From an uncultured Holophagales bacterium (GTDB lineage Bacteria; Acidobacteriota; Thermoanaerobaculia; Multivoradales; UBA5704), in NCBI GenBank assembly GCA_963842525.1, contig CAWJGT010000006.1, forward strand, positions 64,001-128,000: 64,000 nt of DNA, read 5' to 3'. The position numbers were made by a program, and so were the translations under genes. This document shows, piece after piece, positions 27,399 through 53,471 of this stretch. The notes under the pieces are model-generated. The model made no database searches and had not been told where the DNA came from. It saw only the letters and a program-made list of their open reading frames with translations. The number at the start of each line of letters is the position of its first letter. Position 1 is the stretch's first letter.

Positions 27399-35374
<7,976 letters not shown>

Positions 35375-35378
<4 letters not shown>

Positions 35379-38300
35379 CGGAAGCCAGGCTTCGCGCGGT
35401 GCTGGTGGCCCGGTTGGCAGGCCGCCTGGGTATCGAGCCTTCGGCTCTGGATCCCCAGGAGCGGTTCAGCCGGTATGGGTTGGATTCGGCCGGAGCCACA
35501 GGGCTGATCGCCGAGCTGTCGGAGGAGCTGGGGAGGACGCTTTCGCCGACGCTGATCTGGGCGTATCCGACAGTGGAGGAGCTGGCGCGGCACCTCGCGG
35601 CCGGGGAGAGCGCTGCGCTGCGGACGGCGGGACCGGCGGGACTGGCCCAGGCACGCCGTTCCGTCGACGAGCCGATCGCCATCGTCGGCATGGCGTGCCG
35701 GTTCCCGGAGGCTCCGGACATCGAGTCGTACTGGCGGATGCTGTGCGACGGCGTCGATGCCACGCGCACGGTCCCCGCCGACCGGTGGGACGCCGAGGCC
35801 TGGTATGACCCCGATCCGGACCGGCCGGGGACGATCAACACGCGGCGCGGCGCCTTCCTCGACCGGATCGATGAATTCGACCCCCTCTTCTTCGGCATCT
35901 CGCCGCGCGAGGCGACGGAGATGGACCCCCAGCAGCGGCTGATGCTCGAGCTGGCCTGGGAGGGGTTGGAGGACGCCGGCATCCCGCCGCGGTCGCTCGC
36001 CGGGACCCGGACGGGTGTCTTCGTGGGCGTCATCTTCCACGACTACAGCGACCTCCACAAAATGTCCGGGGCACCCGTGACCTCCCACACCGGGCCGGGC
36101 ACGTCGCTCAGCATCGTCGCCAACCGGGTCTCCTATCTCCTGGGGCTGCGCGGACCGAGCCTGTCGGTCGACACCGCCTGCTCGTCGTCCCTGGTGTCGG
36201 TCCTCCTTGCCTGCCGCAGCCTGTGGGAGGGCGAGTCGTCCGTGGCGCTCGCGGGCGGGGTCAACCTGATCCTGACCCCGGAAGTCGCCGTGGAGCTGAC
36301 CAAGTTCGGCGGCCTCTCCGGCGACGGCCGGTGCAAGGCGTTCGACGCCGGGGCCGACGGCTTTGCCCGCGGCGAGGGGGGCGGTGTGGTGGTGCTCAAG
36401 CCGCTGTCGCGGGCGCTGGCCGACGGCGACCGGATCTACTGCCTGATCCGCGGCGGCGCGATGAACAACGACGGCGCGAGCAACGGCCTCACCGCGCCTA
36501 ACCCGCAGGCCCAGGTGGAGGTCCTCCAGGACGCCTATGCGCGGGTGGGCGTCGATCCCGGCCGAGTGCAGTACGTGGAGGCGCACGGCACGGGCACGCG
36601 GCTGGGCGATCCCATCGAGGCCCGCGCGCTCGCCGCGGTGCTCTGCGCGGACCGCGATCCCTCCCGCCCCCTGGTCCTCGGCTCGGCCAAGACCAACATC
36701 GCGCACCAGGAGGGGGCGGCCGGCATCGCCGGGCTGATCAAGCTCGCCCTGGCAGTCCACCACCGGGCGATCCCGCCCACCCTGCACTTCCGGACGCCGA
36801 ACCCGGACATCCCCTTCGAGGAGCTGCGGCTGCGCGTCCAGACCGCGCTCGGTCCCTGGCCCGCGCCTGAGCAGGAGGCCGCGGTAGGCGGGGTCAGCTC
36901 GTTCGGGTGGGGGGGCACCAATTGCCACATGGTGCTGGAGGGGCTGCGGGACCCTCACCCCCCTGGCCCCCCTCTCCCATCCGCACTCCCGATCCCCCGG
37001 GAGAGGGGGGAACAAGGAAAAAGCCTTGAGCTGGAGAGGTCTTCCTCCCCTCTCCCGGGGGGCGGGAGTGCGGATGGGAGAGGGGCCGGGGGTGAGGGTC
37101 CTCTGGTCTTCGTCTTCTCCGGCATGGGCTGGCAGTGGCCGGGCATGGCGCGCGACCTCCTGCGCTCCGAGCCGCTGCTGCGCGCCCGCCTGGAACGCGC
37201 CGACCGGGTCCTGGCGCCGCTGACCGGCTGGTCGCTCCTGGCCGAGCTGACCAGGGGTGGAGAGCGCTGGGGCGAGGTCGAGCTCGTCTTTCCGATCCTG
37301 ATCTCCGTGGAGATGGCGCTCTGCGACCTCTGGCGTTCCTGGGGCGTCGAGCCCGACGCGGTGGTGGGGCACAGCGTCGGCGAGGTCGCGGCGGCCTATG
37401 CGGCCGGGGCGCTCTCGTTCGACGACACCCTGCGGGTCGCGGTCGAGTACGGACGGACCTTGGGGAAGATCGACGGCCGGGGGGCGCTGGGCGTGGTGGC
37501 CCTCGCGCCTGACGAGGTCCGGCAGCGGATTTCGGTCCAGGGAGACCGGCTGGAGCTGGCCGGTGAGCTCAGCCCGGTCTCGGCCGTGGTGGCGGGCGAG
37601 CCGGCCGCGGTCGATGCCTTGCTCGCGCTCGTCAAGGCCGAAGGGCGGTTCGCCGCCCGCGTCGCCGCCAACGCCGCGGCGCACACCGCCCAGGTGGAGC
37701 CGCATCTGCCCGCGATGCGCGAGGCCCTGCGCGGCCTCGCCCCGCGCCCTCCCCGGATCCCCCTGATCTCGACCCTCACCGGAGAGCCGCTCGACCGGCC
37801 CATGGACGGCGACTACTGGACGGACAACCTGCGGCGGCCGGTCCTCTTCTCGCAGGCCGTCGGACAGCTCCTTGCGACGGGGCACGGCCTCTTCCTGGAG
37901 GTCGACGGGCATCCGATCCTGGCCACGCCGCTGGAACAGTGCTTTGCGGCGTCCGGAGCCCGCGCGGCCTGGCTCCCGTCCTTGCGCCGGAACGAGGATG
38001 GCCGCGGGACGCTGTGGGGCTCGCTCGCCGCCCTGCAGGCCGCGGGTCATCCGATCCGATCGGACCGATCCGACCGGTCCGGCCGGCCGGAGCTGGTGCC
38101 CCTCTCTGCCCGCACACCCGAGGCTCTCCGGGATCTGGCGCGGGCGGTGGCGCGCGAGGCGGGGGATGGGTCGCTCCCGGACCTCGCCGGGACCGCAGCC
38201 CTCCGCCGCAGCCATCACGAGCACCGCCTGGCCGCCGTGGCCCGTTCGCGGCCGGAGCTGGCCGACCGGCTGGAGGCTTTTGCGCGCGGCGAGGCGGTCG

Positions 38301-41300
38301 CCGGCCTTTCCGTGGGCCGGACCCGCCGCGGCGACCGGGGCGGGATCGTCTTCGCCTTCTCGGGCCAGGGGCCGCAGTGGCCCGGCATGGGGCGGCAGCT
38401 CTTCGCCGGGGAGCCGGTCTTCCGCGAGGTGATGGAGCGCTGCGACGAGCTGCTCCGGCCCTGGCTCGGCGAGCCCCTCTTCGACCGCCTGGACCGGGAC
38501 GAGGACGCCCTTTCGCACACCGAGCTGGCCCAGCCCGCCTTCTTCGCCCTGCAAGCGGCGCTCGCCGCCCTCTGGCGCTCCTGGGGGGTGGTCCCCGACG
38601 CGGTGATCGGCCACAGCGTCGGCGAGATCGCGGCCGCGCACGTCGCAGGCGCCCTGACCCTCGAAGAGGGGATACGGGTGGCCTGCGTCCGCGGCCGGGC
38701 CATGGAGCCGGGCCGGGGAAAAGGAGGGATGGTCGCCGTCGAGCTGCCCGAGGAGGAGGCCCGGGCCGCGCTGGCTGGGCTCGATGTCTCGATTGCGGCA
38801 GTGAACAGCCCGGCGGCCGTGGTGATCGCAGGTACCCCCGATGCCTTGGACGAAGCTGTGGCGGCCCTTCAGGCGCGTGGAATCACCTGCCGCCGGCTGC
38901 GCGTCGACTATGCCTTCCACAGCGCGGGGATGGAGCCCTTCGACCGGGAGGTGGAAGCCGGCCTCGCCGACCTGCGGCCCCGGCCGGTCGTCCTCCCGAT
39001 GATCTCGACCGTAACAGGGGCAGCCGTGGCCGGGCCGGACCTGGATGGGTCGTATTGGGGGCGCAACGTCCGGCAGCCGGTCCGTTTTGCCGACGCGATC
39101 GGCGTCCTGGCGGACCGTGCCCTGTTCCTGGAGATCGGCCCTCACCCGGTGCTCGCGGTGGCGATCTCCCAGTGCCTGGAGAGCGCGACCCTGCTGGCGT
39201 CGCTCCGCCGCGGCCGGGACGAGCGCGAGACGATGCTCGATGCGCTGGGGTCGTTGTACACGCTCGGCCATCCGATCGACTGGACGGGGGTCCACCCCGA
39301 CGGCGCCCGCCTGGTTCGCCTGCCCACGTATCCCTTCCAGCGGCAGCGGTATTGGTTCGAGGCCGGCAGCTCGACGCGCTCCGCGAGGCCGGCAGCGAAG
39401 CCCTCTGATCAGGAGACTCGGTCCATGTCCCAGCCTTCTCCCTCCAACCGCCACAGCCGCATCGCCGCGACCCTGCAGGGGATCGTCGGGCGGGTGCTGC
39501 GCATCGAGCCAAAGGACATCGACATCGAGGCACCGTTCCTGGAGCTGGGCGCCGACTCGCTCGCGCTGGTCGAGGCCTTGCGCGGCCTCCAGGAGTCCTT
39601 CGGGGTCAAGCTGACGATCCGCCAGCTCTTCGAGCAGCTCCCGTCGATCGCGGCGCTGGCGAGCTTCCTGGACCAAACGTTGCCGGCGGACCCTCACCCC
39701 CTTGATCCCCCTCTCCCAGCCGCACTCCCTTTCCCCGGGAGAGGGGGAGAAACAGAGAAAAGGACCGATGCTCCGGCCATGGAGCGGTTGTTCGCGATGC
39801 AGATCCAGGCGTTCAACGAGGGGTTCAACCAGCTCGTGGCGCAGCAGCTCCAGATGCTCGGCACGGCAACGCCATCCCTCCCCGCTCCTCCAGAACCGGT
39901 GACGACCGCCGCCGGCTCGTGGGAGCGGCGTGGGGTCAAGCCGGCCCTCGCGCCGGTGGCGAAACGGGTGCAGACGGCGGAGCCCGCGGCCCACAAAGCC
40001 CTGGAAGACCACGGCGTCCGCTTCGGCCTCTATTTCTTCGGCAACTACGCGGCCGAGTTCCGGGCCGGCAAGTACGACCTGCTGCTCGACACCGCGCGCT
40101 TCGCCGACCGCCACGGGTTCAATTCGATCTGGTTCCCCGAGCGCCATTTCCACCCGTTCGGCGGCCTGTCGCCCAATCCCTCGGTGCTCGCCGCGGCCCT
40201 GGCGCGCGAGACGGAGCGGATCGCCCTGCGGGCGGGCAGCGTCGTGCTCCCCCTGCACCACCCGGTGCGGGTAGCCGAGGAGTGGGCCCTGGTGGACAAC
40301 CTGTCGGGCGGCCGGATCGGGCTCTCCTACGCCTCGGGCTGGCACCCCAACGACTTCGCCCTGGCGCCCGAGGCCTACGGGCGCCACAGGGACCTGATGT
40401 TCGAGCGCGCCGAGACGGTCCGCCGGCTGTGGCAGGGCGAAGCGGTCCGCCTGCTCGACGGCGCCGGCAAGGAGGTCGACCTCCGCATCTTTCCCCTGCC
40501 GTCGCGGCGCGACCTGCCGGTCTGGATCACCATCGTCAACAACCCGGACACCTACCGGGCCGCCGGCGAGATGGGCGCCGGCGTGCTCACCAATCTCATG
40601 GGCCAGACGCCGGACGCGCTCGCCGCCAACCTGGCCATCTATCGCGAGGCCCTGGCGGGCGCCGGCCACCCGCCCGAACGGGGGCATGTGGCCCTGCTCC
40701 TCCATACCTTCCTCGGCCCTGACGCCGAGCAGGCGATCGACGCCGCGCGCCGGCCGTTCTACGCCTACATGGAGTCTTCGGTCGGACTGGTCCAGAACGC
40801 CTTGGCGAGCGAGGGCGCGCCGGTCGATTTCGAGCGCCTGTCGCGCGAGGACTTCGAGTACATGCTGGAGCTTGCCTACCAGCGCTATGTGAAGGCCTCG
40901 GCTCTCATCGGCTCGCCGGAGTCCGTGTCCCCGATCGTCGAGCGGCTGCGCGATGCCGGGGTGGACGAGGTGGCCTGCCTGGTCGATTTCGGGGTGGACC
41001 CGGACGCGGTGCTCGCGAGCCTCCCCTCGATCGCGGCGCTCCAGGAGCGCTTCCGCCCGCGGCGGCATCGGCCGTCCATGGCCCCGGCCGAGGTGCCGCT
41101 CACCGCGTCCCAGCGCGATCTCTATACCGTGACCCAGCTCGGGGAGGAGGCCTCGCTCGCCTACCTGGAGCCGGGCATCGTGGAGATGCGCGGGCCGCTG
41201 GACGTGGACCTCCTGCGGCGGTCGCTCCAGGCGGTGGTGGACCGGCACGAGGCCCTGCGCTCGGTCGTGCCACCCGCGGATGCGGGCGAGCCGGTGCAGG

Positions 41301-44300
41301 TCGTCCTTCCCCAGCTTCTCCTCGACGTGCCGCTGGTCGATGTGTCGGGGTGCCCACCCGAGCGGCGCGAGGAGGCCGCGCAGGGCTGGCTCACCGCCGA
41401 GAGCCTGCGCGTCTTCGACCTCACCCGCGGGCCGCTGATCCATGCGTCCCTGCTGCGCCTGGGGCCGCGGAGCCGTCCGGTGCACCGGCTCGGGGTGTTC
41501 GTCCATCACATCGTGGCCGACGGGCTGTCGATCGTGATCCTGATCCGCGACGTCTTGGTGATCTACGAGGCCGGGCGCGCCGGACGCAGGCCCGTGTTGC
41601 CGCCGGCGATGCGGTTCCGCGACTATGTGGCCTGGCTGGCGGCGGAGGGAGCCCCGACGCCCGAGGACGAGGCCTGGTGGCTCTCGCGCTTCGCCGGGAC
41701 ACTCCCGGTGTTCGAGCCGCCCGCCGACCGGCCGCGCTCGCCGGTGCGCACCTTCGCCGGCTCGCGCCGCGGCCTGGTCCTCGATCCGGACGTCCATCGG
41801 GCGCTCCACCAATTCAGCCGGGGCCGGGGCGTGACCTTCTTCATCTCGCTGCTCGCCGCCTATACGGCGATGCTCCACCGCTGGACCGGGCAGGACGACC
41901 TCATCGTCGGCGGGCCGGCCAACCGTCGGCCGCTCGAAGGGGGGGACCGGCTCGTCGGCCACTGCGTCGACCTGGTGCCCTTCCGCAGCCGAGCCGAAGG
42001 CGACCCGACCTTCCTCCAGCATCTGGCCGCCACGCGCGCCTTTGTCCTCGACACGCACGAGCACAGCGGTTATTCGTTCGCCCACCTGCTGCGAGCGCTG
42101 CGGCTGCCCCACGACCCGTCCCGGCTGCCGCTGATCAACGCCGTCTTCAGCTTCGATCCCGGCGCCGCGATCCCCAAGGCGGCCGGTCTGGAGCTGATCG
42201 AGCGTCCGCCGGTGATCACCCACGCCAAGTTCAACGTCGCGCTGCACGTCCTCGAAGCCGGCCCGGACCTCCTCGTCCAGGTGGAGTACCGGACCGACCT
42301 CTTCGAGCCCGAGACCATGGACCGCTTCCTGGAGCGCCTGGTCCTCCTGGCCGAAGGCGCCGTGGCCGATCCCTCCCGCCCCCTGGGAGACCTGCCGCTG
42401 CTCACCCCGGCCGAGCGCAGGCAGGTCCTCGACGAGTGGAGCGGCACGGCGGCGGAGTATCCGCGAAACCTCCCCCTCCACCAACTGTTCGCGGCCGTGG
42501 TCGAGCGCAATCCCGAGGCCCCGGCCTTGATCTGGACCGGCCCGGAGGGCGAAGAGCGGCTGACCTACGGCGAGCTGGCTGCCCGGGCGGATGAGCTGGC
42601 GGACCGGCTGCGTGCGCTCGGGGTGGGGCCGGAAGTACGGGTGGTCCTGGAGATGGAGCGGTCGCCCGAGCTGGTCGTAGCCATGCTGGCGGTCCTGAAG
42701 GCGGGTGGGGCGTATGTGCCGATCGATCCGGCCGATCCGGCGGAGCGGCGGGCGTTTCTTCGCGAGGATTCGGGGGCAGCAGTGGTTCTCCCCTCTCCCG
42801 GGGGATGGGAGGGCGATGGGAGAGGGGCCGGGGGTGAGGGGCTCGGCGGCGGCGACCACCTCGCCTGCGTGATCTACACCTCCGGCTCCACCGGCAAGCC
42901 CAAAGGCGTGGCCATCCTCCACCATGCCATCGCCCGGCTGGCGCTGAACACCGACTACATCCACCTGGGGCCGGGCGACCGTATCGCCCACGCCTCGAGC
43001 CCGGCCTTTGACGCCACCACGTTCGAGGTCTGGGGGGCGCTCCTGACCGGAGCGGCGCTGGTGGTGATTTCACGCGAGGTGGCTCTGGCACCCGCGATGC
43101 TGGCCGAGGAGGTCCGGCGGCGGGGCGTCACGGCCATGTTCCTCACCACAGCTCTTTTCAACGAGGTGGTCCGCGAGGCGCCGCAGGTCGCGCGCGACCT
43201 GCGTTGGCTGCTCTTCGGCGGCGAGGCGGTCACGCCGCAGCGGGTCCGCGAGGCGTTGGCGGCGGCCGGGCCGGAGCTGCGGCTCGTGCACCTGTACGGC
43301 CCCGCGGAGGGCACCACGCTGGCGACCTGGCACCACGTGGAATCCGTGCCCGAGGGACGGACGGTTCCGATCGGCGGTCCGGTCGCCAACACCCGGGTCT
43401 GGTTGCTCGATCCGCTCCTGCGGCCGGTGCCGGTGGGTACGCCCGGCGAGCTGTGCATCGGCGGCGACGGTCTGGCCCGCGGTTATCTCGGCCGGCCGGA
43501 CCTCACCGCCGAGCGCTTCGTGCCGAGCCCGTTCGAGGCCGGCGAGCGCCTCTATCGCACGGGCGACCTGGCGCGCCGGCGGCCGGAGCGGCCGGGGTCG
43601 CCGGGGTGGCCGGACGGTGCCATCGAGTTCCTGGGGCGGACCGATACCCAGGTGAAGATCCGCGGCCTCCGCATCGAGCCGGGGGAGGTCGAAACCGTCC
43701 TCGCCGGCTGCCCCGGGGTGCGGGAGGCCGCTGTCGTGGTCCAGGAGACGGACGGCGGGCGGCGGCTGGCCGCCTTTGTGGTGCTCGAAGCGGGGGCCAC
43801 CCCGCAGATTCCCCCGGATATCCGAGGCTTCCTGGCCCAGCGGCTGCCGGCGTGGATGGTCCCTGCCGGGGTGACTGTCCTCGACGCCCTCCCGGTGACC
43901 CCGGGCGGCAAGGTGGATCGCCGCGCCCTGGCCCTCCTGGAGAAGGCCGGCGGCTCCTCGGAGCGCCCCTTCGAGGCGCCGCGCAATCCGGTCGAGGAGA
44001 TCCTGGCCGGCGCCTGGGCCGATGTCCTGCGCCGCGAGCGGATCGGCATTCACGACGACTTCTTCGCGCTCGGTGGCCACTCGCTCCTCGCCGGCCGGGT
44101 CCTCTCCCGCCTGCGCGGTCTGCTGGGCGCGGAGGTCTCGCTGCGCGACTTCTTCCGCGAGCCGACCGTGGCCGGCCTGGCCCGGCTCGCCGAGCGGGCG
44201 CGCCAGACTGCCGCAGGAGCTGTCCCGCCTCCAATCGTGCCAGCGCTGAGGGCACCCGGGAGTGACCATCTCCGTCTCTCGTTCGCCCAGGAGCGGCTCT

Positions 44301-46660
44301 GGCTCATCGACCAGCTCCAGCCGGGGAGCACCGCCTACAACAGCTTCCTCCCCGCCCTGCTGACCGGCCGGCTCGACGCCGCGGCCCTGGAGCGGGCGCT
44401 GGGCGAGATCCGCCGCCGTCACGAGGTGTTGCGCACCCGGTTCGTCGCCACGCCGGAGGGGCCGGTCCAGGTGATCGACACGCCTGGCGCCTGGCACCTG
44501 CCAGGGGTGGACCTCGACGCCCTCCCCCCGGCCGTGCGCGAGACCGAGCTGCACCGGCTGGCCGCCGCGGCGGCCAGCCGGCCGTTCGACCTCGCCCGCG
44601 GACCGCTCTTCCGACCCACCCTGCTGCGTCTCGGAGAGAGCGAGCACGCCCTCCTTCTCGACCTCCACCACTCCGTCTGCGACGGCTGGTCGCTGGAGGA
44701 GGTGATGACGGCCGAGCTGAGCGCCCTCTATCAGGCGTTTTCTGAGGTTGCCGCGGGACGGCCGTCGCCGCTGCCCGAGCTGCCGATCCAGTATGCCGAC
44801 TTCGCGCAGTGGCAGCGGCAGTGGCTCCAGGGCAAAGCCCTGGAAACGCAGCTCGCCTGGTGGCGGGAGCGGCTCGGCGGCGAGCCCCCCGCTCTGGACC
44901 TCCCTACAGACCGGCCGCGCCCCGCGGTTCTGAGCGGACGCGGCGACTCCGAGACGATCTTTCTCCCGCCGGACCTGCTGGCGGGCCTCGCCGGGCTTGC
45001 CCAGCGGCACGGGGCGACGCTGTTCATGGTTCTGCTCGCGGGGCTCCAGGCCGTGCTCCACCGCTGGTCCGGGCAGGACCGGATCGGCATCGGCACCCCG
45101 GTCGCCAACCGCAACCGCCTGGAGATCGAGCCCCTGATCGGCTTCTTCATCAACACCCTCGTCCTGGCGCCCGACCTCGCCGGGAATCCCTCGGTCAGCT
45201 CGCTGCTGGAGCGGGTGCGGGACCTGACCCTGGGCGCCTTCGACCACCAGGACCTCCCCTTCGAGAAGCTGGTCGCGGTGCTCCAGACCCGCCGCGACCC
45301 GAGCCGGAACCCGCTCTTCCAGGTCCTCTTCGTGCTGCAGAACAACCGGCCGTCGTCCCTCGACCTGCCCGGATTGGAGGTCGCCGTGCTGCCCCCCGGC
45401 CCCGCCGTGGTGCAGTTCGATCTCTCGTTTTCGGCCGTCGAGAGTCAGGGAAGCCTCCTCCTGTCGGTGGCCTGGAGCGCCGACCTCTTCGACCGCACCA
45501 CCGTCGAGAGGCTGCTGGCCGACGTGCGCCGCGGCCTGGAGGGGATGGTGGAGGACCCGGCGCAGACCCTTCGCGACCTGCCCCTGGCCTTCGGGCCGCC
45601 GGAGCGCCGGCAGGTCGCGTCCGAGCAGGTGGAGGCTGCGGCGGCGCCCGGCGATGAGGCGGGGGAGGCGCCGCAGGAGGGCCTCCGGCAGCGGCGCCAG
45701 CAGGTCGCCTCCCGCCGCCGGCAGCTCTCGCCGGAGCGGCGTGCCCTGCTGGAGAAATGGGTGGGCGGCGCGCCGGCCGGGGCGGCTCCCGAGGATGAGG
45801 CGAAGGAGGCGCCGCCGGTCTCGCCGCTGGTGCCCGTCCAGCCCATCGTGCCCGGGGAGGACGTCCGGCCGCCGATCTTCCTCGCGCATCCGGCCAACGG
45901 CACGGTCAACAACTACCTCGCGCTGGCGCGCCAGCTCGGTCCGGAGCAGCCGCTCTACGCCCTCCAGGCGCCGGGCCTTGCGGGCGGCGAGGTGCTGGCG
46001 GACCTGGAGCCCATCGCCGCCCGTTATGTGGAGGCGGTGCGCACGGTCCAGCCGCACGGCCCGTACCGGCTCGGCGGCTGGTGCACGGGCGGGACCGTCG
46101 CCTTCGAGATGGCCCGCAAGCTGCACCGGGAGGGGGAGGAGGTGGACCTCCTGGTGCTGATCGACAGCCATGCGCCGCCGGCCGAGCTCCCCGGGCCGGC
46201 CGACGAGGCCATCCTCCTCGGATCGTTCGCCGAAGAGCTTGCCACCTCGGCAGGCAAGAGCCTGCGCGCCCCGCTCGACGACCTGCGCCGCATCGCGCCG
46301 GAGGAGCGCCTGGACTGGCTGCTGGAGCTGGCGCGCCAGAGCGGGGTCCTTCCCGAGAGCTTCGACGCCGAGCAGGCCCACCGGCATTGGGAGGTCCTGC
46401 GCGCCAACGTGCGGGCCATCGAGCGCGCCCGGCTGGAGCCCCTGCCGCTGCGCGCGGTCCAGTTCCGCGCCATGACCCAGCCGCCCGAGGCACAGGGGCG
46501 AAGGGCCCTTGGCTGGGACCTCTGGATCGCCGGCCCGTTGGAGATCGTCGACCTCCCCGGAGGCCACGAAGACCTCCTGCGCCCGCCGTACCTGGAGGCC
46601 CTCGCCCGCGAGATGACCGCCCGGCTGGCCCCGGCGGTAGGGGTGACGCCCGGGATATGA
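35375..46660 (+). CDS. Fused hybrid PKS/NRPS: ACP-KS-AT-AT-ACP-LLM-C-A-PCP-C-TE (copy C)
   Basis: GTG 35375 overlaps the upstream TGA and has a GGAGGAG RBS. Same motifs as copy B but no aminotransferase; C-terminal thioesterase FLAHPANG, GWCTG, LIDS, GGHEDL. Confidence 0.95.
36952..37098. repeat. In-frame inverted doublet of family-1 REP forming the KS-AT1 linker (copy C)
   Basis: 147 bp at the same position as 24669-24830, with a different spacer. Confidence 0.85.
39691..39748. repeat. In-frame family-1 REP after the internal ACP (copy C)
   Basis: ccctcacccccttgatccccctctcccagccgcactccctttccccgggagaggggg. Confidence 0.8.
42788..42840. repeat. In-frame family-1 REP in the A-domain loop (copy C)
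   Basis: ctcccctctcccgggggatgggagggcgatgggagaggggccgggggtgaggg. Confidence 0.8.
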
Positions 46661-48331: not shown

Positions 48332-48433
48332 AAGGAACGAAAATCATAGCAGAGGCTGCGCTCCATGTCGCCCTCTTGGCGGGCCGGGGGTGGCTGCGGT
48401 ACATTTCCAGGCATCGTGAGCATCCAGGATCGG

Positions 48434-48991
48434 ATGACCGAGCGCACGCGCGGCCATGTAGAGGCGATCTCCGGAGGCATGTTCTCCGGCAAGAGCGAGG
48501 AGCTCGTCCGCCGGTTGCGGCGCGCCACCATCGCCCGCCAGACGGTCCAGGTGTTCAAGCCGGCCGCCGACCATCGCCATGCGCCGGAACGGCTGGTCAC
48601 CCGCGACAACCGCGAGCTGGAGGCGGTCTCGGTGACCTGCAGTTGCGAGCTGCGGCGCAAGCTCCTTCCAGGGGTGCAGGTGGTGGGGATCGACGAGGCG
48701 CAGTTCTTCGACGCCGGCCTGGTCCAGCTCGTCGGCGAGCTGGCCGACTCCGGCGTGCGGGTCATCGTCGCCGGGCTCGACCTCGACTATCTGCGCCGTC
48801 CCTTCGGGCCGATGCCCCTGCTCCTCGCCCTCGCCGAGTACGTGGACAAGATGCACGCCGTCTGCATCCGCTGCGGCGCGCCCGCCCACTACAGCCAGCG
48901 CATCGCCGGCGGCACCGAGCAGCTCCAGGTCGGCGACAACGAAGCCTACGAAGCCCGCTGCCGTCACTGCTACCATCCGTTCGAGGGGTGA
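48434..48991 (+). CDS. tdk: Thymidine kinase
   Basis: GMFSGKSEEL, IDEAQFF, AGLDLDY...PFG, CxxC...YEARCRHC. Confidence 0.95.
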   Translation: MTERTRGHVEAISGGMFSGKSEELVRRLRRATIARQTVQVFKPAADHRHAPERLVTRDNRELEAVSVTCSCELRRKLLPGVQVVGIDEAQFFDAGLVQLVGELADSGVRVIVAGLDLDYLRRPFGPMPLLLALAEYVDKMHAVCIRCGAPAHYSQRIAGGTEQLQVGDNEAYEARCRHCYHPFEG

Positions 48992-49011
48992 GGCAGGACG
49001 CCACGGCGTCT

Positions 49012-49550
49012 CTACTCCTGAATGTCTACCGTGATTCGCAGGAGAGGCGCCGAACCGTCTGCGAAAAGCTCGCGCCATTGCTGTACGGGAATCCTGAACG
49101 CGGCTTTGGGCGGTTTATAACTCCGGGACCATGCGCCGAGGGTGAGATCGTTCCAGAACTGTTGCCCAACCACTCGGCCATCCTTGCTCACGAGAGCGAC
49201 GGTCAAATCGACATCCTGGAGGGGCCATTCGCTGACCAGCATCGGTGCTGCTTCGACAACTACTTCTGTCGAGGTCTCAGCAACCTTCTTCACCGTCAGC
49301 ATCCGTACGCGAGCCTGATCACAGACAAAAAATCCGTCTCCGGATAGGCTCTTGCCTTGCCGAGCGGCTGCTGATCGAACGACGCCCGGGCCGTCCCTCC
49401 CGCGTCGACATCAGCGCCGAGTGAGACCTCGATCTGCATCGGATCAGGAATCTCTGTCCGCCCGGCACTGCCAGCGGCCGGGCCAGCGGAAACCTGAAAG
49501 AGTGCCAAAAGTACCGATTGCAAGAAAGAACTCAGCCATTTGAATGCCAC
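49012..49550 (-). CDS. Hypothetical secreted protein, apparently split by a frameshift near 49300
   Basis: Overlapping ORFs 49296..49550 (signal-peptide-like N-terminus) and 49012..49302 in a lower-GC segment. Confidence 0.4.
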
Positions 49551-50278
49551 TCGATCGACTTCAACAGGACGCTTGCCAGCCGGTGGACGGCCTTCCGCAC
49601 CGAAGGATCGGGGTTGGCGAAGTCGTCAGGTGCCGCACTAACGGCACCACCAAGCTGTTCCCATGTTATGTAGGCAACAATCGCATCGACCTGTTCAAGA
49701 AGCTGGTCGGCCGGCGGGAAGCGCTGACCCGTGCGTTGAAGTACCGGCTCAAGATACTTGGCGATGGCATCACGAATAGGAAGGCGCGCGGAACGCTGCA
49801 CGCGAACAGGGGGTGCCTCCGCCAAGACAAGAAGCAGAAGAGGTCTTCGGCCTCGTGCCTCCTGCAGCGTTGTCACGAATTCACGAGCCAACTGCTCCGG
49901 TTGAAAGCAAGCCTTTTTCAGGCGCTTCGCCTCGATGAGACAGTAGACGCGATTGGCTTGGAGAATACCGTCTGGCTGCACGCAGAGCGGCACGCCCTTA
50001 GGAGTCTGCTTGGCTAGATAGATGTCTCCCGGAAGGAAGCTAAACTCGAGATCCTCGATTTGGTCGTGCAGCAGTTCGCGAGTTCCCTGAGCGCCGCCCT
50101 GCAGTGATTTGACTACGCGTCCAAGGAATTCTGCGCGCGGAAGGAAGTTGAGCGCTTGAAAGACCTCAGCGGTGAGGACGTTCTCAAAGCCGCGGCCGCC
50201 TTTGCGGTAGTGCCGCGCGTTCCCCTCCCAAGAGATCTCCTCAAGCAGCCTGCCCAGAACGGTCGGGGAAGTCTTCAT
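49532..50278 (-). CDS. Hypothetical protein with PD-(D/E)XK nuclease-like motifs
   Basis: ENVLT...VQPDGIL...CLIEAKR...EQLARE pattern; lower GC than the flanks. Confidence 0.65.
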   Translation of the reverse strand: MKTSPTVLGRLLEEISWEGNARHYRKGGRGFENVLTAEVFQALNFLPRAEFLGRVVKSLQGGAQGTRELLHDQIEDLEFSFLPGDIYLAKQTPKGVPLCVQPDGILQANRVYCLIEAKRLKKACFQPEQLAREFVTTLQEARGRRPLLLLVLAEAPPVRVQRSARLPIRDAIAKYLEPVLQRTGQRFPPADQLLEQVDAIVAYITWEQLGGAVSAAPDDFANPDPSVRKAVHRLASVLLKSIEWHSNG

Positions 50279-50413
50279 CTCAGCGAATACCTAAGCTCTC
50301 GCAGTTGTGCCACCGCCGTCTAACGGAATTCGAACCCCCCAGAGGCGTGCCTATGCCTCAGCATCTGCTAGCCACTCTGCTGCCGGCACTCTTTCCCCGG
50401 CTGTTGCAAAAAA

Positions 50414-50611
50414 GAGCCTCAGAGAGGCTCAGGCGTGTAGCCCGGGGTCAGGCGCGACGAAGGAGCGACGACCCCGGGTGAGGAGGCCCATTTTTCTCCA
50501 AGCCCCAGAGGGGCGGCAGCAGATTCGTTTGGGCAACGGGTTTGCTGCCGCCCCTCTGGGGCTTGGGAATATTTTTCGTTTCCAGACCCGGGGTCGCCGC
50601 TCCTTCGTCGC
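50414..50611. repeat. Large nested hairpin, REP-like family 2
   Basis: 50454-50479 pairs with 50586-50611 and 50498-50521 pairs with 50543-50566; contains gtagcccggggt and agccccagaggggcggca. Confidence 0.85.
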
Positions 50612-51346
50612 TTGCATTGCGCCAGCGGAGCTTGCAACGCCTTGGCGGAGCTTACGGCGAGCCAACGTAAGCTTACATCGGCATAGCGGAGCTTACATCG
50701 CGCCAGCGGAGCTTACGCTGAGCCGGCGTAAGCTTGCATCGCGCCAGCGGAGCTTGCAACGGCCTAGCGGAGCTTGCAACGAGCCAGCGTAAGCTTACAT
50801 CGGCGTGGCGGAGCTTACATCGAGCCAGCGGAGCTTACGCTGAGCCGATGTAAGCTTGCATTGCGCCAGCGGAGCTTGCAACGGTCTGGCGGAGCTTACG
50901 CTGAGCCAACGTAAGCTTACATCGGCGTGGCGGAGCTTACATCGGGCCAGCGGAGCTTACGCTGAGCCGTCGTAAGCTTACGGCGAGCCGTCGTAAGCTC
51001 CGCTGAGGTAATGCAAGCTCCGCCAAGCCCACGTAAGCTTGCTCTGAGACGCCGCAAGCTCCGCCAGGACGGCCCAAGCTCCGCCAAAACACCAGCAGCT
51101 TGCGACAAGGCGATGTAAGCTCCGCTGAAGCAACCCAGGCTCCGCCAAGACAGCCCAAGCTTGCACGGAGGCGCCACAAGCTCCGCCAAGACGACCCAAG
51201 CTCCGCCAAGACGCCAGAAGCTTGCGACGAAATGGCGCAAGCTCCGCTCAAGCGACCCAAGCTCCGCCAAGACACCCGAGCTTGCCTTGAGCCGAGGCGA
51301 GATCCGCTGAGGCACCGTAAGCTCCTCCAAGACGCCACAAGCTTGC
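50608..51346. repeat. Inverted array of ~37 AGCT-core units with 20/20/21 bp spacing (61-bp higher-order period)
   Basis: Left arm units GCGGAGCTTRC, GCGGAGCTTRC, GTAAGCTTRC; right arm their reverse complement (AAGCTCCGC, AAGCTTG). Inversion centre at about 50985. Confidence 0.92.
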
Positions 51347-51348
51347 CG

Positions 51349-51783
51349 CTAGCCAAGGCAAGGCTCCGCGTCCTCCCGCGGGGCGCCGAGCGGGATCGGC
51401 TGGCCGTTGCGGTCGACGTGGACGTACACGACCTCGGCCTCGGTGACCTTGACCGTGCCGCTGCTCACCCCGTGCGGTCCTCGTTCGGCTTCCACCGTCA
51501 CTTTCACCGTGATCGAGGTCCGGCCCAGCCGTAAGGTCTCGGTATAGAAGCTCACCAGGTCGCCGACGAAGACCGGCGCGTGGAACACCACCTCGCGCAT
51601 GGCCACGGTCACCAGCCGGCCCGGAGCGTGCCGGTGGGCCTCCACCGCTCCGGCCTGGTCGATGTAGGAGAGAATGATGCCGCCGAAGATCGTGCCCAGG
51701 GCGTTCGTGTCCTTGGGCATCAGGATCACCCGGATGGCCGGCTGCACCGGCCCGGTCCCGCGGTCCACTGCCGTCTCGTTCAT
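51349..51783 (-). CDS. Acyl-CoA thioesterase (hotdog fold, YciA-like)
   Basis: [37 protein letters not shown]. Confidence 0.92.
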
Positions 51784-51888
51784 GCGCTCCCTCGATCCTT
51801 TCAGGACAGCACGGACCCCGGGTGTGGGCCCGGAGCCTTGCGGCCTCATGTTATCCTAGGCACTTCCGAGCGCGGCCCGTCGACACAC

Positions 51889-52494
51889 ATGCCGGATACG
51901 GACTCGATTTCAGCACGAACCGGCCCTTCGGGCTCTCTGCCCGATGCGGCGTTGCTGCGCCTCGTCAGCGAGGGCCGGACGGAGGCGCTGGCCGCGCTGT
52001 ACGACCGCCACGCGCCCACCCTCCTCGCCCTCGCCCGGCGCATCCTGGGCGACACCGGCGAGGCCGGCGACGTCGTGCAGGAGGTCTTCCTCCACGCCTG
52101 GAACCGCGCCGCCCGGTACGATGCGACACGCTCGTCGGTCTCGACCTGGCTGGTGCTGATCGCCCGCAGCCGCGCCATCGACCGCCTCCGTCATCGCGGC
52201 GTGGTGGAGCGGACCCACGAGGCGGCGCACCACGACCAGCCGGCCGGGCATGCATCCCCCGACGGGGCCGAAGCCGTATTCCTCCGAGAGCGGCGGGAGC
52301 GGGTGCGGCGCGAGCTGGACAATCTGCCGCCCGAACAGAGGCAGGTCCTGGAGATGGCCTTCTACGAGGGCCTCACCCAGACCGAGATCGCCGCCCGGGC
52401 CGACCTGCCCCTGGGCACGGTGAAGACGCGGACCCTGTTGGCGATGAAAAAGCTGCGGAACAGTTTGCGTTCCGAGGTCAGGCAACTGCTGTGA
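51889..52494 (+). CDS. ECF sigma-70 factor (SigK-like)
   Basis: ALYDRHA, DVVQEVF, TWLVLIARSRAIDRLR, LPPEQR...EGLTQTEIA...PLGTVKTR. Confidence 0.93.
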   Translation: MPDTDSISARTGPSGSLPDAALLRLVSEGRTEALAALYDRHAPTLLALARRILGDTGEAGDVVQEVFLHAWNRAARYDATRSSVSTWLVLIARSRAIDRLRHRGVVERTHEAAHHDQPAGHASPDGAEAVFLRERRERVRRELDNLPPEQRQVLEMAFYEGLTQTEIAARADLPLGTVKTRTLLAMKKLRNSLRSEVRQLL

Positions 52495-53471
52495 GTCAGG
52501 ACACGCAACCGGAAGACCGGACCATCCTCGCCGCGATCGAGGCCCTCGAACGAGGCGGTGACGCCCTCGAGCCGGGGGCGGACGCCGACGAGACCGCCGA
52601 GACGCTGGCGCGCCTCTATGCCGAGGTGCTCGGCCTGATCGCCTATGAGCTCGATCCCGTGGCTCCGCCGCCCGAGGTCAAGCAGCGCCTGATGGCGGCG
52701 ATCGCTGGCGAGGCGTCGCCCCAGGCGCCCCAGGCCCAGACCGAGCAGGCAGTGCCCCGGCCCGCGCCGGTCCCGACTCCCGCCCGGGAAGCCGCCGCCG
52801 TCCCGCCGCCCGCCCCATCCGTCCGCCCCTCGCAGGAGGTACCGGCTGCGTCTCCGGCCCCACCGACCTCGCGCGTGCCGCTTCGGCCGCCGGCGGTCTC
52901 GCGTCCTCCCAGGCGCTGGCCGGTGCTGTTGGCCGCATCCCTGGCCCTCATCTTCGCCGGGTCGTCCGCTTGGCTCTACGATCAGTGGATCACAGAGCAG
53001 ACGAAGACTACGCAGCTCGGGCAGTTGCTCGAAGAGGAGCGCCGCCGGGGCCTCCAAGGAAACGAGCCGGTCGAAGATCTGCGTGCCCAGCTCGCCAGCC
53101 TGCGCGAGAAGCTCAACATGGTCACCACCCCCGCGGTCGAGGTCAGTCCCCTGCGCCCGGAGGGGCGGCTCCAGCCCCAGGCGCGCGGCCTCCTTTTCGT
53201 CGCCGCCGACCACAAGCACTGGTATCTCAATGTCGAGGGCCTCCAGCCTGCGGACGCGGACAAGGTCTACCAGCTCTGGTGGATGGCGCCCGAGGGACCC
53301 GTGAGCGGCGGCACCTTCATCGCCCGTCCCGGCGAGCGGATCGAGCTGAGCTCCGAGACCATGCCTGCCGGCACCACCGCCGCCGTCGTCACCCTCGAAA
53401 ACGCCGGCGGCGCCCCCGCGCCCACCGGTCCTGCGGTTCTGCGCTCGACAGGGATCCGGCAGCTCTCGTAA
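52491..53471 (+). CDS. Anti-sigma factor, RskA-like
   Basis: GTG overlaps the sigma stop codon; PPPEVKQRL, one TM helix, VYQLW, PVSGGTF, AVVTLE..GG...PTGP. Confidence 0.88.
   Translation: MSQDTQPEDRTILAAIEALERGGDALEPGADADETAETLARLYAEVLGLIAYELDPVAPPPEVKQRLMAAIAGEASPQAPQAQTEQAVPRPAPVPTPAREAAAVPPPAPSVRPSQEVPAASPAPPTSRVPLRPPAVSRPPRRWPVLLAASLALIFAGSSAWLYDQWITEQTKTTQLGQLLEEERRRGLQGNEPVEDLRAQLASLREKLNMVTTPAVEVSPLRPEGRLQPQARGLLFVAADHKHWYLNVEGLQPADADKVYQLWWMAPEGPVSGGTFIARPGERIELSSETMPAGTTAAVVTLENAGGAPAPTGPAVLRSTGIRQLS

Follow-up and report, generated by a model that had tools for sequence, protein, structure and literature searches.

The window analysed here is a stretch of 64,000 nucleotides, positions 64001-128000 of contig C6 in a genome of 34 contigs (9.95 Mb, 67-68% GC) whose proteins and repeat arrays have their named relatives in Acidobacteria or Thermoanaerobaculia. 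Between a thymidine kinase gene and a thioesterase gene it carries a long tandem array of short units built on AGCT cores, which is the subject of this report. An earlier reading of the same letters (the original prediction) had taken positions 50414-51346 as one array together with a repetitive extragenic palindromic (REP) hairpin; this span merges two different things, a dispersed palindromic element (50392-50613) and the array itself (about 50610-51369). The array was found to belong to a large class of elements that, in its typical form, is the downstream partner of the gene for a small all-helical protein, here called p132. The features of the locus were as follows:

48365..48991, plus strand: thymidine kinase gene (NF003296, 224.6 bits for a cut-off of 183), the convergent left neighbour
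48992..51385, no strand: strain-specific insertion of about 2.4 kb, 59-62% GC, holding the gene P0002, the dispersed element and the array
49532..50278, minus strand: P0002, an accessory gene for a PD-(D/E)XK-like (restriction-endonuclease-like) protein of 248 amino acids
50392..50613, no strand: dispersed palindromic repeat of about 220 bp (the "REP hairpin")
50408..50430, minus strand: intrinsic-terminator-like hairpin, with a stem from 50430 to 50414 (7 pairs) followed by TTTTTT
50610..50970, minus strand: arm B of the array, 17 units forming a six-unit, 122-bp higher-order repeat of CGTAAGCTCCGC / GTAAGCTCCGC / GTAAGCTTAC
50971..50982, no strand: junction unit, a perfect 12-bp palindrome (CGTAAGCTTACG) at which the orientation flips
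50983..51369, minus strand: arm A, composed of 18 units, each about 20-21 bp long and of the type (C)TTGGCGGAGCTTG..., with GCAAGCTT in every third unit
51349..51849, minus strand: 4HBT-family thioesterase gene (PF03061, E 2e-16), on the same strand as the array and upstream of it

The array is a real, non-coding repeat element, far beyond chance. Exact AGCT cores numbered 34, from 50629 to 51340, and succeeded one another every 20, 20, and 21 bp; at two places the distance was 40/41 bp, corresponding to a degenerate core (AGGCT and AGAT), and at one it was 19 bp. A phase walk counted 36 units, of which 18 belong to one arm and 17 to the other, with the junction unit between them; only two of the 36 had no AGCT, and a degenerate 37th unit was present at the left edge of the array. 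Tandem Repeats Finder, the program used for tandem arrays throughout this work, detected periods nested within one another (20, 41, 61, and 122 bp). The 122-bp period was the cleanest, with matches at 90% for the left arm and 77-81% for the right one, and every 61-bp row consisted of two GGAGCTT units and one AAGCTT unit. The GGAGCTT units were by themselves non-palindromic; every third unit was a palindrome of 12-20 bp, for example CGTAAGCTTACG or CCGATGTAAGCTTACATCGG. Conserved cores of 9-10 bp were separated by spacers of 9-11 nucleotides that recurred with the 61/122-bp periodicity. When the deviation per site was calculated for the core flanks, excluding the AGCT letters since these are fixed by the anchoring, values of 0.024 in arm B and 0.11 in arm A were obtained, as compared to 0.14 and 0.29 for the spacers; core flanks were thus 3-6 times less variable than spacers, and the length of the unit was constant. 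Complementarity between the arms reached 73-75% over 108-125 nucleotides. Arm A was rich in G+T on the minus strand (AT skew +0.37 and GC skew -0.15 on the plus strand at 51000-51399), arm B was unskewed, and the outermost, degenerate unit of arm A overlapped the last codons of the thioesterase gene. Between four and nine stop codons occurred in each of the six frames across 50610-51369, and the open reading frames that overlap the array (137-161 amino acids) had no Pfam match. The AAGCTT hexamer was mildly under-represented genome-wide (ratio 0.73), and 211 of its 1051 sites lay inside arrays, which make up 1.07% of the genome. The core spacing and its phasing close to two turns of the helix, the alternation of two GGAGCTT units with one AAGCTT unit and its 61/122-bp super-periods, the change of orientation, and the lack of coding capacity had all been put forward in the original prediction and stood up to this analysis. 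Two DNA sequencing runs gave only short contigs, among which no joints were seen. Those from a public soil run match the window without differences, and 51282-51574 is bridged by one of them; this run may be the source sample, and thus gives weak support to the assembly.

The two-arm AGCT family to which the window array belongs has five copies in the genome. A BLAST search with the window array found the four others, with 80-86% identity over 422-723 bp:

Contig C1, 3196-3807
Contig C4, about 64800-65365
Contig C19, about 422425-422960
Contig C23, about 395225-395940

When the whole genome was walked for runs of five or more AGCT cores spaced 19-22 bp apart, 13 such chains were obtained at eight loci, seven of them repeat arrays and the remaining one a coding coiled coil. 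All five family loci presented arm A followed by the inverted arm B, with constant unit types and order: units of the CTTGGCGGAGCTTG type with G+T-rich spacers in arm A, and the six-unit, 122-bp higher-order repeat in arm B. The A-to-B direction corresponded to the minus strand in the window. A palindromic junction unit was present in the copies on C1, C19, and C6, and those on C4 and C23 passed straight from an A unit to a B unit. Since the same two unit types occurred in the same order at the five loci, the arms, described in the original prediction as differently diverged, represent two conserved types and not the random divergence of a single repeat. The number of units ranged from 23 to 36 depending on the locus. 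The neighbouring genes were unrelated (thioesterase and nuclease-like genes in the window; AbiJ-like, helix-turn-helix-TPR, AidB, and glyoxalase genes elsewhere), and an all-against-all comparison of the open reading frames within 4 kb found none common to the five loci other than those internal to the arrays. The A-to-B direction agreed with that of the upstream gene at four of the five loci. The arrays on C1 and C23 have both ends in common, and inspection of the array ends by eye revealed no clear target-site duplication.

The distribution of this family was narrow. It had no BLAST match in five genomes of the same genus, all of them fragmented assemblies (210-580 contigs); at the sites of the other four arrays the flanks were matched in these genomes but no match covered an array, in outputs dominated by dispersed repeats. 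Among 40 relatives, a BLAST search with the array gave matches only in its own genome and weak ones in a genome of another genus (G008), whose arrays were rejected as family members, being of a different AGCT-core type and having no p132 within 1.5 kb. The exact pattern of two GGAGCTT and one AAGCTT at the spacing of the array gave nine single matches in 185,579 species genomes, about half of them due to chance or unrelated, and two loci of Thermoanaerobaculia (L034 and L035) showed AGCT-core arrays without the two-arm build.

Beyond this family, soil Acidobacteriota have a very large class of arrays with 19-21-bp units, of which the window array is a member. The genome contained 257 tandem arrays of at least 150 bp, mostly with units of 19-21 bp, and their best periods peaked at 42 bp (19 arrays), 62 bp (19), 63 bp (34), 84 bp (18), 102 bp (11), 122 bp (9), and 126 bp (21), all multiples of about 20.3-21 bp. 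Among those of 126 bp, some were coding and corresponded to WD40 or TPR repeats. Many array families unrelated in sequence had the same 19-21-bp unit with a short palindromic core. As a separate observation, the commonest period class (34 loci at 63 bp) included a 63/64-bp-period family with CCGCGG-type cores (e.g. C4:66196-66526, L002:6110-6392), which was also present in the same-genus genomes, where the AGCT family was not found.

The lead to a gene partner came from an open reading frame of 132 amino acids upstream of the AGCT array on contig C19, paralogues of which lay beside two other arrays:

Contig C19, 423108-423506 (L003:5709-6107), minus strand: p00, the p132 copy at the C19 AGCT array

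A tblastn search with p132 gave about 33 matches in the genome, 26 of which extended over at least 80 amino acids. Taking an array within 600 bp of the gene as linked, the array was downstream of p132 at 17 of these 26 loci and upstream at one, and a random 630-bp window touches an array in 2.5% of cases. In contigs of soil metagenomes (L091-L170) an array started at most 600 bp after the p132 stop in 36 of 49 evaluable relatives, and upstream arrays were found in none of 54. Five genomes of other genera contained 51, 25, 16, 6, and 0 copies of p132, and in four other genera 17 of 30 p132 loci had an adjacent array, located downstream in 10 of them and upstream in seven. No other conserved neighbouring gene, including a partition NTPase, was found around the 26 p132 loci. 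A GC-rich hairpin followed by a run of five to eight T separated the p132 stop from the array at 21 of the 24 loci listed, and the typical order was thus the p132 gene, a strong intrinsic terminator, 20-80 bp, and the array. In its typical form, therefore, the class is the downstream partner of the p132 gene. The C19 AGCT array followed this arrangement, being separated from the p132 stop by 189 bp that include a terminator. A six-frame profile search detected no p132 within 3 kb of the window array, nor any remnant near the other members of the family except on C19; having neither the gene nor the terminator upstream, the window copy was filed as an orphan array and not as a module.

Gene and array changed together. 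They co-duplicate as a unit of about 1.1-1.3 kb; closely related p132 copies had related arrays, and the sequence of the array differed among paralogue groups. The nearest paralogue of p00, p04 (52% identity, 56% in the tblastn match), is accompanied by an array unrelated in sequence to the AGCT arrays, which nevertheless repeats at the same 61/122-bp super-period. In metagenomes, the arrays of the closest p00 relatives had the spacer pattern of the AGCT arrays and an altered core (GATCCTTAC / GTATCCATAC) in a single orientation, and most arrays of p132 relatives were likewise of a single orientation, without an inverted arm. The GATAAGCTTATC array family is an example of an array that is non-cognate with respect to p00.

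The p132 family is a real protein family, predicted to form a long helical hairpin with a disordered tail. Its members are 120-140 amino acids long; 21 paralogues aligned with invariant residues and with the strongest conservation in the C-terminal EKLxEFGLQPFRGR(K), and database relatives amounted to 1083, the few named ones being from Acidobacteria or Thermoanaerobaculia. An AlphaFold2 (AF2) model (pLDDT 82) displayed helices at 7-23, 29-88 (long), and 93-98 (short), followed by a disordered proline-rich tail. Neither a sequence-profile search of PDB nor the ESM Atlas led past "hypothetical, Acidobacteriota" and generic helices.

Taking these observations together, we tentatively favour the view, to which we would give a little less than an even chance, that the arrays act as DNA, each being a phased multi-site platform for its cognate p132 paralogue. 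We prefer it because of the gene-terminator-array rule, the position of the terminator between p132 and the array, which argues against their co-transcription, and the spacing of about two helical turns. The cognate p132 would bind the conserved 9-10-bp cores (GGAGCTTRC / YAAGCTTRC), which follow one another at intervals of roughly two turns of the helix. With a unit of 20.3 bp, each site is slightly rotated relative to the one before it, and this slow drift favours a protein-DNA filament that is wrapped or superhelical. Sequence specificity would be determined by the N-terminal half of p132, which is variable, and the conserved C-terminal motif, ahead of the disordered tail, may interact either with a common DNA feature or with a shared partner. 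Possible roles for such a filament could be nucleoid anchoring, insulation of convergent genes, or selfish upkeep of the gene-array cassette, and the window array would be an orphan extra site acting in trans for p00. A phased protein-binding platform had already been suggested in the original prediction; the idea survives, with the p132 family, which adjoins arrays of this class, as another candidate partner in place of the nuclease-like protein. A bolder extension, judging from the sequences compared here, is that p132, the terminator, and a private array of 8-36 phased sites make up an undescribed self-contained protein-DNA module of Acidobacteriota, present as dozens of diversified pairs per genome, in which each pair would build a specific filament and FGLQPFRGR would couple all of them to one common machine; the AGCT arrays would be a bipolar variant, and the orphans trans-sites for one AGCT-specific paralogue. 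In this complete form the proposal is speculative, and we regard it as rather unlikely to hold in every part.

Several results weigh against a DNA platform for p132. Only 17 of the 257 arrays were linked to the gene, the remaining 240 having no p132 within 600 bp; only one of the five AGCT arrays was linked, and the abundant 62- and 63-bp families occurred without a linked p132. In genus g7 (G011), the array was upstream of p132 at six of eight loci (L072, L075, L079, L083, L087, and L090), finishing 40-110 bp ahead of its start. The protein has no recognisable DNA-binding fold: no match to p132 was found in Pfam, NCBIfam, PHROGs, or PADLOC, and Foldseek against PDB and a wide structure search gave only generic helical matches, with Z of 7 or lower. 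The best-conserved part of the protein is common to paralogues with differing arrays and cannot therefore carry the sequence specificity, and plain co-duplication is expected to produce gene-array co-variation by itself. The failure to find the AGCT family in the same-genus genomes indicates that its function is dispensable or very young, and the excess of G·U pairs between the arms suggests a role as RNA, considered below.

A second explanation, which we regard as unlikely although far from negligible, is a selfish or neutral minisatellite, similar to REP and bacterial interspersed mosaic elements (BIME), that spreads by slippage, unequal exchange, and possibly the action of Y1 (RAYT/TIRYT-like) transposases. 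Such arrays would have no dedicated binder and at most generic effects (stabilisation of 3' ends, sites for gyrase or nucleoid proteins, insertion hotspots), p132 being a passenger or a founder. The original prediction had itself named similar arrays at many unrelated intergenic sites, with no consistent partner and no transcription, as the sign of a simple selfish repeat, and this was in part what was found, because the same array occurs at unrelated intergenic sites. Its presence at five such sites, its apparent absence from the five same-genus genomes, the number of units that varies from locus to locus, and the large majority of arrays without p132 nearby all fit this explanation.

The surroundings of the window copy fit it as well. 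This copy lies within a recent insertion of about 2.4 kb between convergent housekeeping genes: homology to the same-genus relatives stopped at 48973-48983 and restarted at 51384-51397, and in three of the five genomes (G004, G001, and G005) the thymidine kinase and thioesterase homology blocks were 46-77 bp apart as compared with about 2.4 kb in the window. The interval matches the dip in GC content to 59-62%. The copy thus sits in an accessory or mobile patch, together with a laterally distributed nuclease gene and a dispersed 220-bp palindrome. The latter consists of an outer stem (50454-50484 / 50581-50611) and an inner stem (50498-50529 / 50535-50566), folds as RNA at -149.8 kcal/mol (z -14.8), and recurred at no fewer than 12 other loci on nine contigs with 74-94% identity; the terminator-like hairpin of the locus lies inside it and is carried by its other copies too.

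Transposase genes were found near some arrays. On C19, a RAYT-like gene located 356 bp beyond arm B matched NF047646 (E 3.6e-10) and had an HUH-type HYH motif, and a 34-amino-acid fragment of the same family lay 30 bp ahead of the C23 array. Matches to Y1_Tnp were modestly enriched near arrays, with seven of 21 located within 2.5 kb of an array vs. 2.8 expected (P about 0.013). However, the C19 gene scored 39.9 bits with NF047646, below the NCBIfam cut-off of 80 (PF01797, E 0.0028), AGCT units flanked it on one side only, no such gene was found near the window copy, and the GTAG tag expected of a REP-type element did not occur in the array. A minisatellite would also leave unexplained the one-sided linkage to p132, with arrays downstream of the terminator, the conservation of cores between drifting spacers of fixed length, and the common 19-21-bp unit of arrays unrelated in sequence.

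A third explanation, which we consider quite improbable, is that the array acts as a long structured RNA of the minus strand, made by read-through from the thioesterase gene as one imperfect, G·U-rich hairpin of about 370 bp, ending at the terminator-like hairpin (50430-50408) and serving as a 3'-untranslated-region stabiliser or as a source of unit-length RNAs, processing into short units having been suggested in the original prediction. A fold into one giant hairpin was predicted for the minus strand, with an energy of -476.8 kcal/mol (z -16.0), as compared to -412.0 kcal/mol (z -14.7) for the plus strand, and an asymmetry of 47-65 kcal/mol between strands was obtained for the three arrays with balanced arms (C1, C6, and C23) but not for C4 or C19, where the arms are unequal. 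In the ungapped pairing of the arms over the first 300 positions, G·U pairs exceeded A·C pairs by about 3:1 (48:16 in C6, 55:18 in C1, and 57:19 in C23); this excess arises from the G+T-rich arm A alone and may reflect the two unit types and not selection for RNA pairing. A terminator scan found no terminator between the thioesterase stop and arm A, a terminator-like site lies beyond the array on the same strand, and the agreement in direction with the upstream gene at four of the five loci is in line with read-through; that terminator-like hairpin is, however, part of the unrelated dispersed element, and no promoter-like site was found at the locus. In typical modules the array follows a strong terminator and is thus not co-transcribed with p132, and most arrays of relatives are of a single orientation, without an inverted arm. 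The Rfam search of 49000-52500, with E values up to 1, gave generic microRNA-type hairpins far below their gathering scores.

The nuclease-like protein encoded by P0002 had been offered in the original prediction as the user of the array. The nuclease-like character was upheld: D103, E116, and K118 were invariant among 24 aligned sequences, and a Foldseek search with the AF2 model (pLDDT 87.5) weakly matched MspJI (E 6e-4) as well as other nucleases of the PD-(D/E)XK type. PADLOC gave a weak candidate-defence match for P0002 (PDC-M15A, E 5e-7), and the PDB sequence profile gave none. Its relatives are scattered across cyanobacteria and actinobacteria, one of them being named "restriction endonuclease" in one source. 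The partnership did not stand, since the gene was single-copy, was not found in the five same-genus genomes, and was not represented by any homologue within 4 kb of the four AGCT arrays elsewhere in the genome; its adjacency is read as that of two accessory elements in one permissive gap. That the array serves this protein as a substrate, as a decoy, or as a source of guides, including an AGCT/AAGCTT restriction or methylation decoy, can be practically dismissed in spite of the shared insertion and strand, the restriction-site-like palindromic cores, and the concentration of AAGCTT sites in arrays, as the 220-bp element stands between gene and array, no methyltransferase domain appeared among the neighbours scanned, the AAGCTT ratio was unremarkable, and the relatives in cyanobacteria and actinobacteria, listed by name and not by context, gave no sign of such arrays.

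Set against described systems, the window array is a bacterial extragenic repeat array and the p132-terminator-array module is the more novel lead. REP/BIME elements and plasmid centromere arrays were the closest in their working, and the window array fails a defining test of each. Units of REP/BIME are imperfect palindromes of 20-40 bp that form stem-loops, and a REPtron is a RAYT gene flanked by repeats. Similarly to REP/BIME and to the REPIN/RAYT systems of Enterobacteria and Pseudomonas, the arrays considered here are extragenic, dispersed, and multi-copy (five loci in the family, 257 arrays in the class), with partly palindromic short units in clusters, often at the 3' ends of genes or between convergent genes, with an abundance that differs among close relatives, and with Y1 (HUH) transposase-like genes nearby at two of the five AGCT loci. 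According to one study, RAYT-like "TIRYT" genes are described in Acidobacteria, and REP palindromes have a GTAG or CGTC tag at one end (PMC3733652). In contrast, GTAG/CTAC was absent from 50610-51369, and CGTC/GACG appeared eight times, in spacers and at no fixed end of the unit. The array also differs from REP/BIME in its strictly phased 20-21-bp units with 61/122-bp higher-order repeats and up to 36 units, in its two long opposed arms instead of alternating single REPs, in having a true palindrome only at every third unit, and in a recurrent partner that is p132 and not a RAYT.

Plasmid centromeres with small adaptor proteins include sopC behind sopB in F and parC with ParR in R1 and pSK41. 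As in these, a small protein gene stands beside tandem repeats phased at about one to two helical turns, with conserved, partly palindromic cores, and the protein tail is flexible, basic, and conserved; the array itself, like centromeres and iterons, has its sites in tandem at distances of whole helical turns, each with a conserved core. Unlike them, the p132 loci have no partition NTPase or other conserved neighbour, occur as dozens of chromosomal copies per genome, and encode a protein in which no ribbon-helix-helix or helix-turn-helix fold was seen, and an adaptor gene is altogether missing from the window copy. Bacterial minisatellites or variable-number tandem repeat (VNTR) loci such as MIRU share with these arrays the non-coding intergenic tandem repeats, a variable number of units, and rapid changes of presence and absence among relatives, whereas the much shorter unit held at 19-21 bp across unrelated sequences, the hierarchical super-period, the inverted two-arm build, and the statistical link to one gene family are particular to the arrays described here.

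Type III toxin-antitoxin systems consist of a toxI repeat array, a terminator, and toxN, with repeats of about 36 nucleotides in 2-6 copies. They resemble the p132 modules in that an intrinsic terminator parts the array from a small protein gene and that several sequence families coexist in a genome. They differ in the order, which is gene-terminator-array in most genera here, with the array upstream only in G011, and which would make the array the under-expressed part, unlike toxIN; in the units, of 20-21 nucleotides and 8-36 copies here; and in the protein, as p132 is a helical hairpin for which no nuclease-like or ToxN-like fold was found. CRISPR arrays have repeats of 24-48 bp, unique spacers of similar length, and cas genes nearby. 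A CRISPR array was rejected, as the original prediction had it, since the units are of 20-21 bp, with cores of 9-10 bp and recurring spacers of 9-11 nucleotides, and no cas-like domain was present in the 14 neighbouring open reading frames scanned. A full-text literature search found no description of such arrays in Acidobacteria or of the rule that links them to p132.

Some additional features of the window and of the genome were recorded. The thioesterase gene had orthologues in all five same-genus genomes (79-86% identity), and its final 12-15 codons (51349-51395) were unlike those of all five; this altered C-terminus results from the boundary of the insertion falling inside the 3' end of the gene, where sequence of the array edge was substituted. 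Small open reading frames in 49012-49550 had no Pfam match, a tRNA scan of the window found no tRNA, and an open frame of 3875 amino acids lies upstream of the array region at 35033-46660 on the plus strand. Copies of the 220-bp element occurred just past a CRISPR-array-like region (C14:168116-168912); that region, at C14:160362-167348, gave Tandem Repeats Finder periods of 75-79 bp with a common 37-bp repeat. A family of 317-amino-acid RAYT/TIRYT-like HUH tyrosine transposases (L003:3718-4671 on the minus strand, contig C19; C19:303534-304484; and others) was multi-copy in this genome and in all the same-genus genomes, and copies or fragments of it lay about 30-360 bp from arrays at five loci (C19, C23, C3:632689, C25:67057, and C7:144751). 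On contig C4, at about 67015-67070 (L002:7215-7270), an element of 53-60 bp had more than 100 matches and was present in all five same-genus genomes with 86-98% identity; being far more conserved than its surroundings, it could be a small RNA, a promoter, or the end of a miniature inverted-repeat transposable element (MITE).

Considered alone, the array in the window adds a further case to the known bacterial minisatellites, and its supposed connection with the nuclease gene does not hold. Arrays of this kind are a hazard for assembly and annotation, because spurious open reading frames of 137-161 amino acids cross the one in the window. What extends beyond this locus is the rule by which a protein family with more than 1000 relatives is followed by a terminator and by an array of 19-21-bp units, the sequence of which varies along with that of the protein. 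This rule turns the dense, helically phased intergenic repeats of soil Acidobacteriota into a testable protein-DNA hypothesis, for which p00 and the AGCT cores would be the partners; should it prove wrong, the arrays would still be a useful case of fast, hierarchical repeat evolution.

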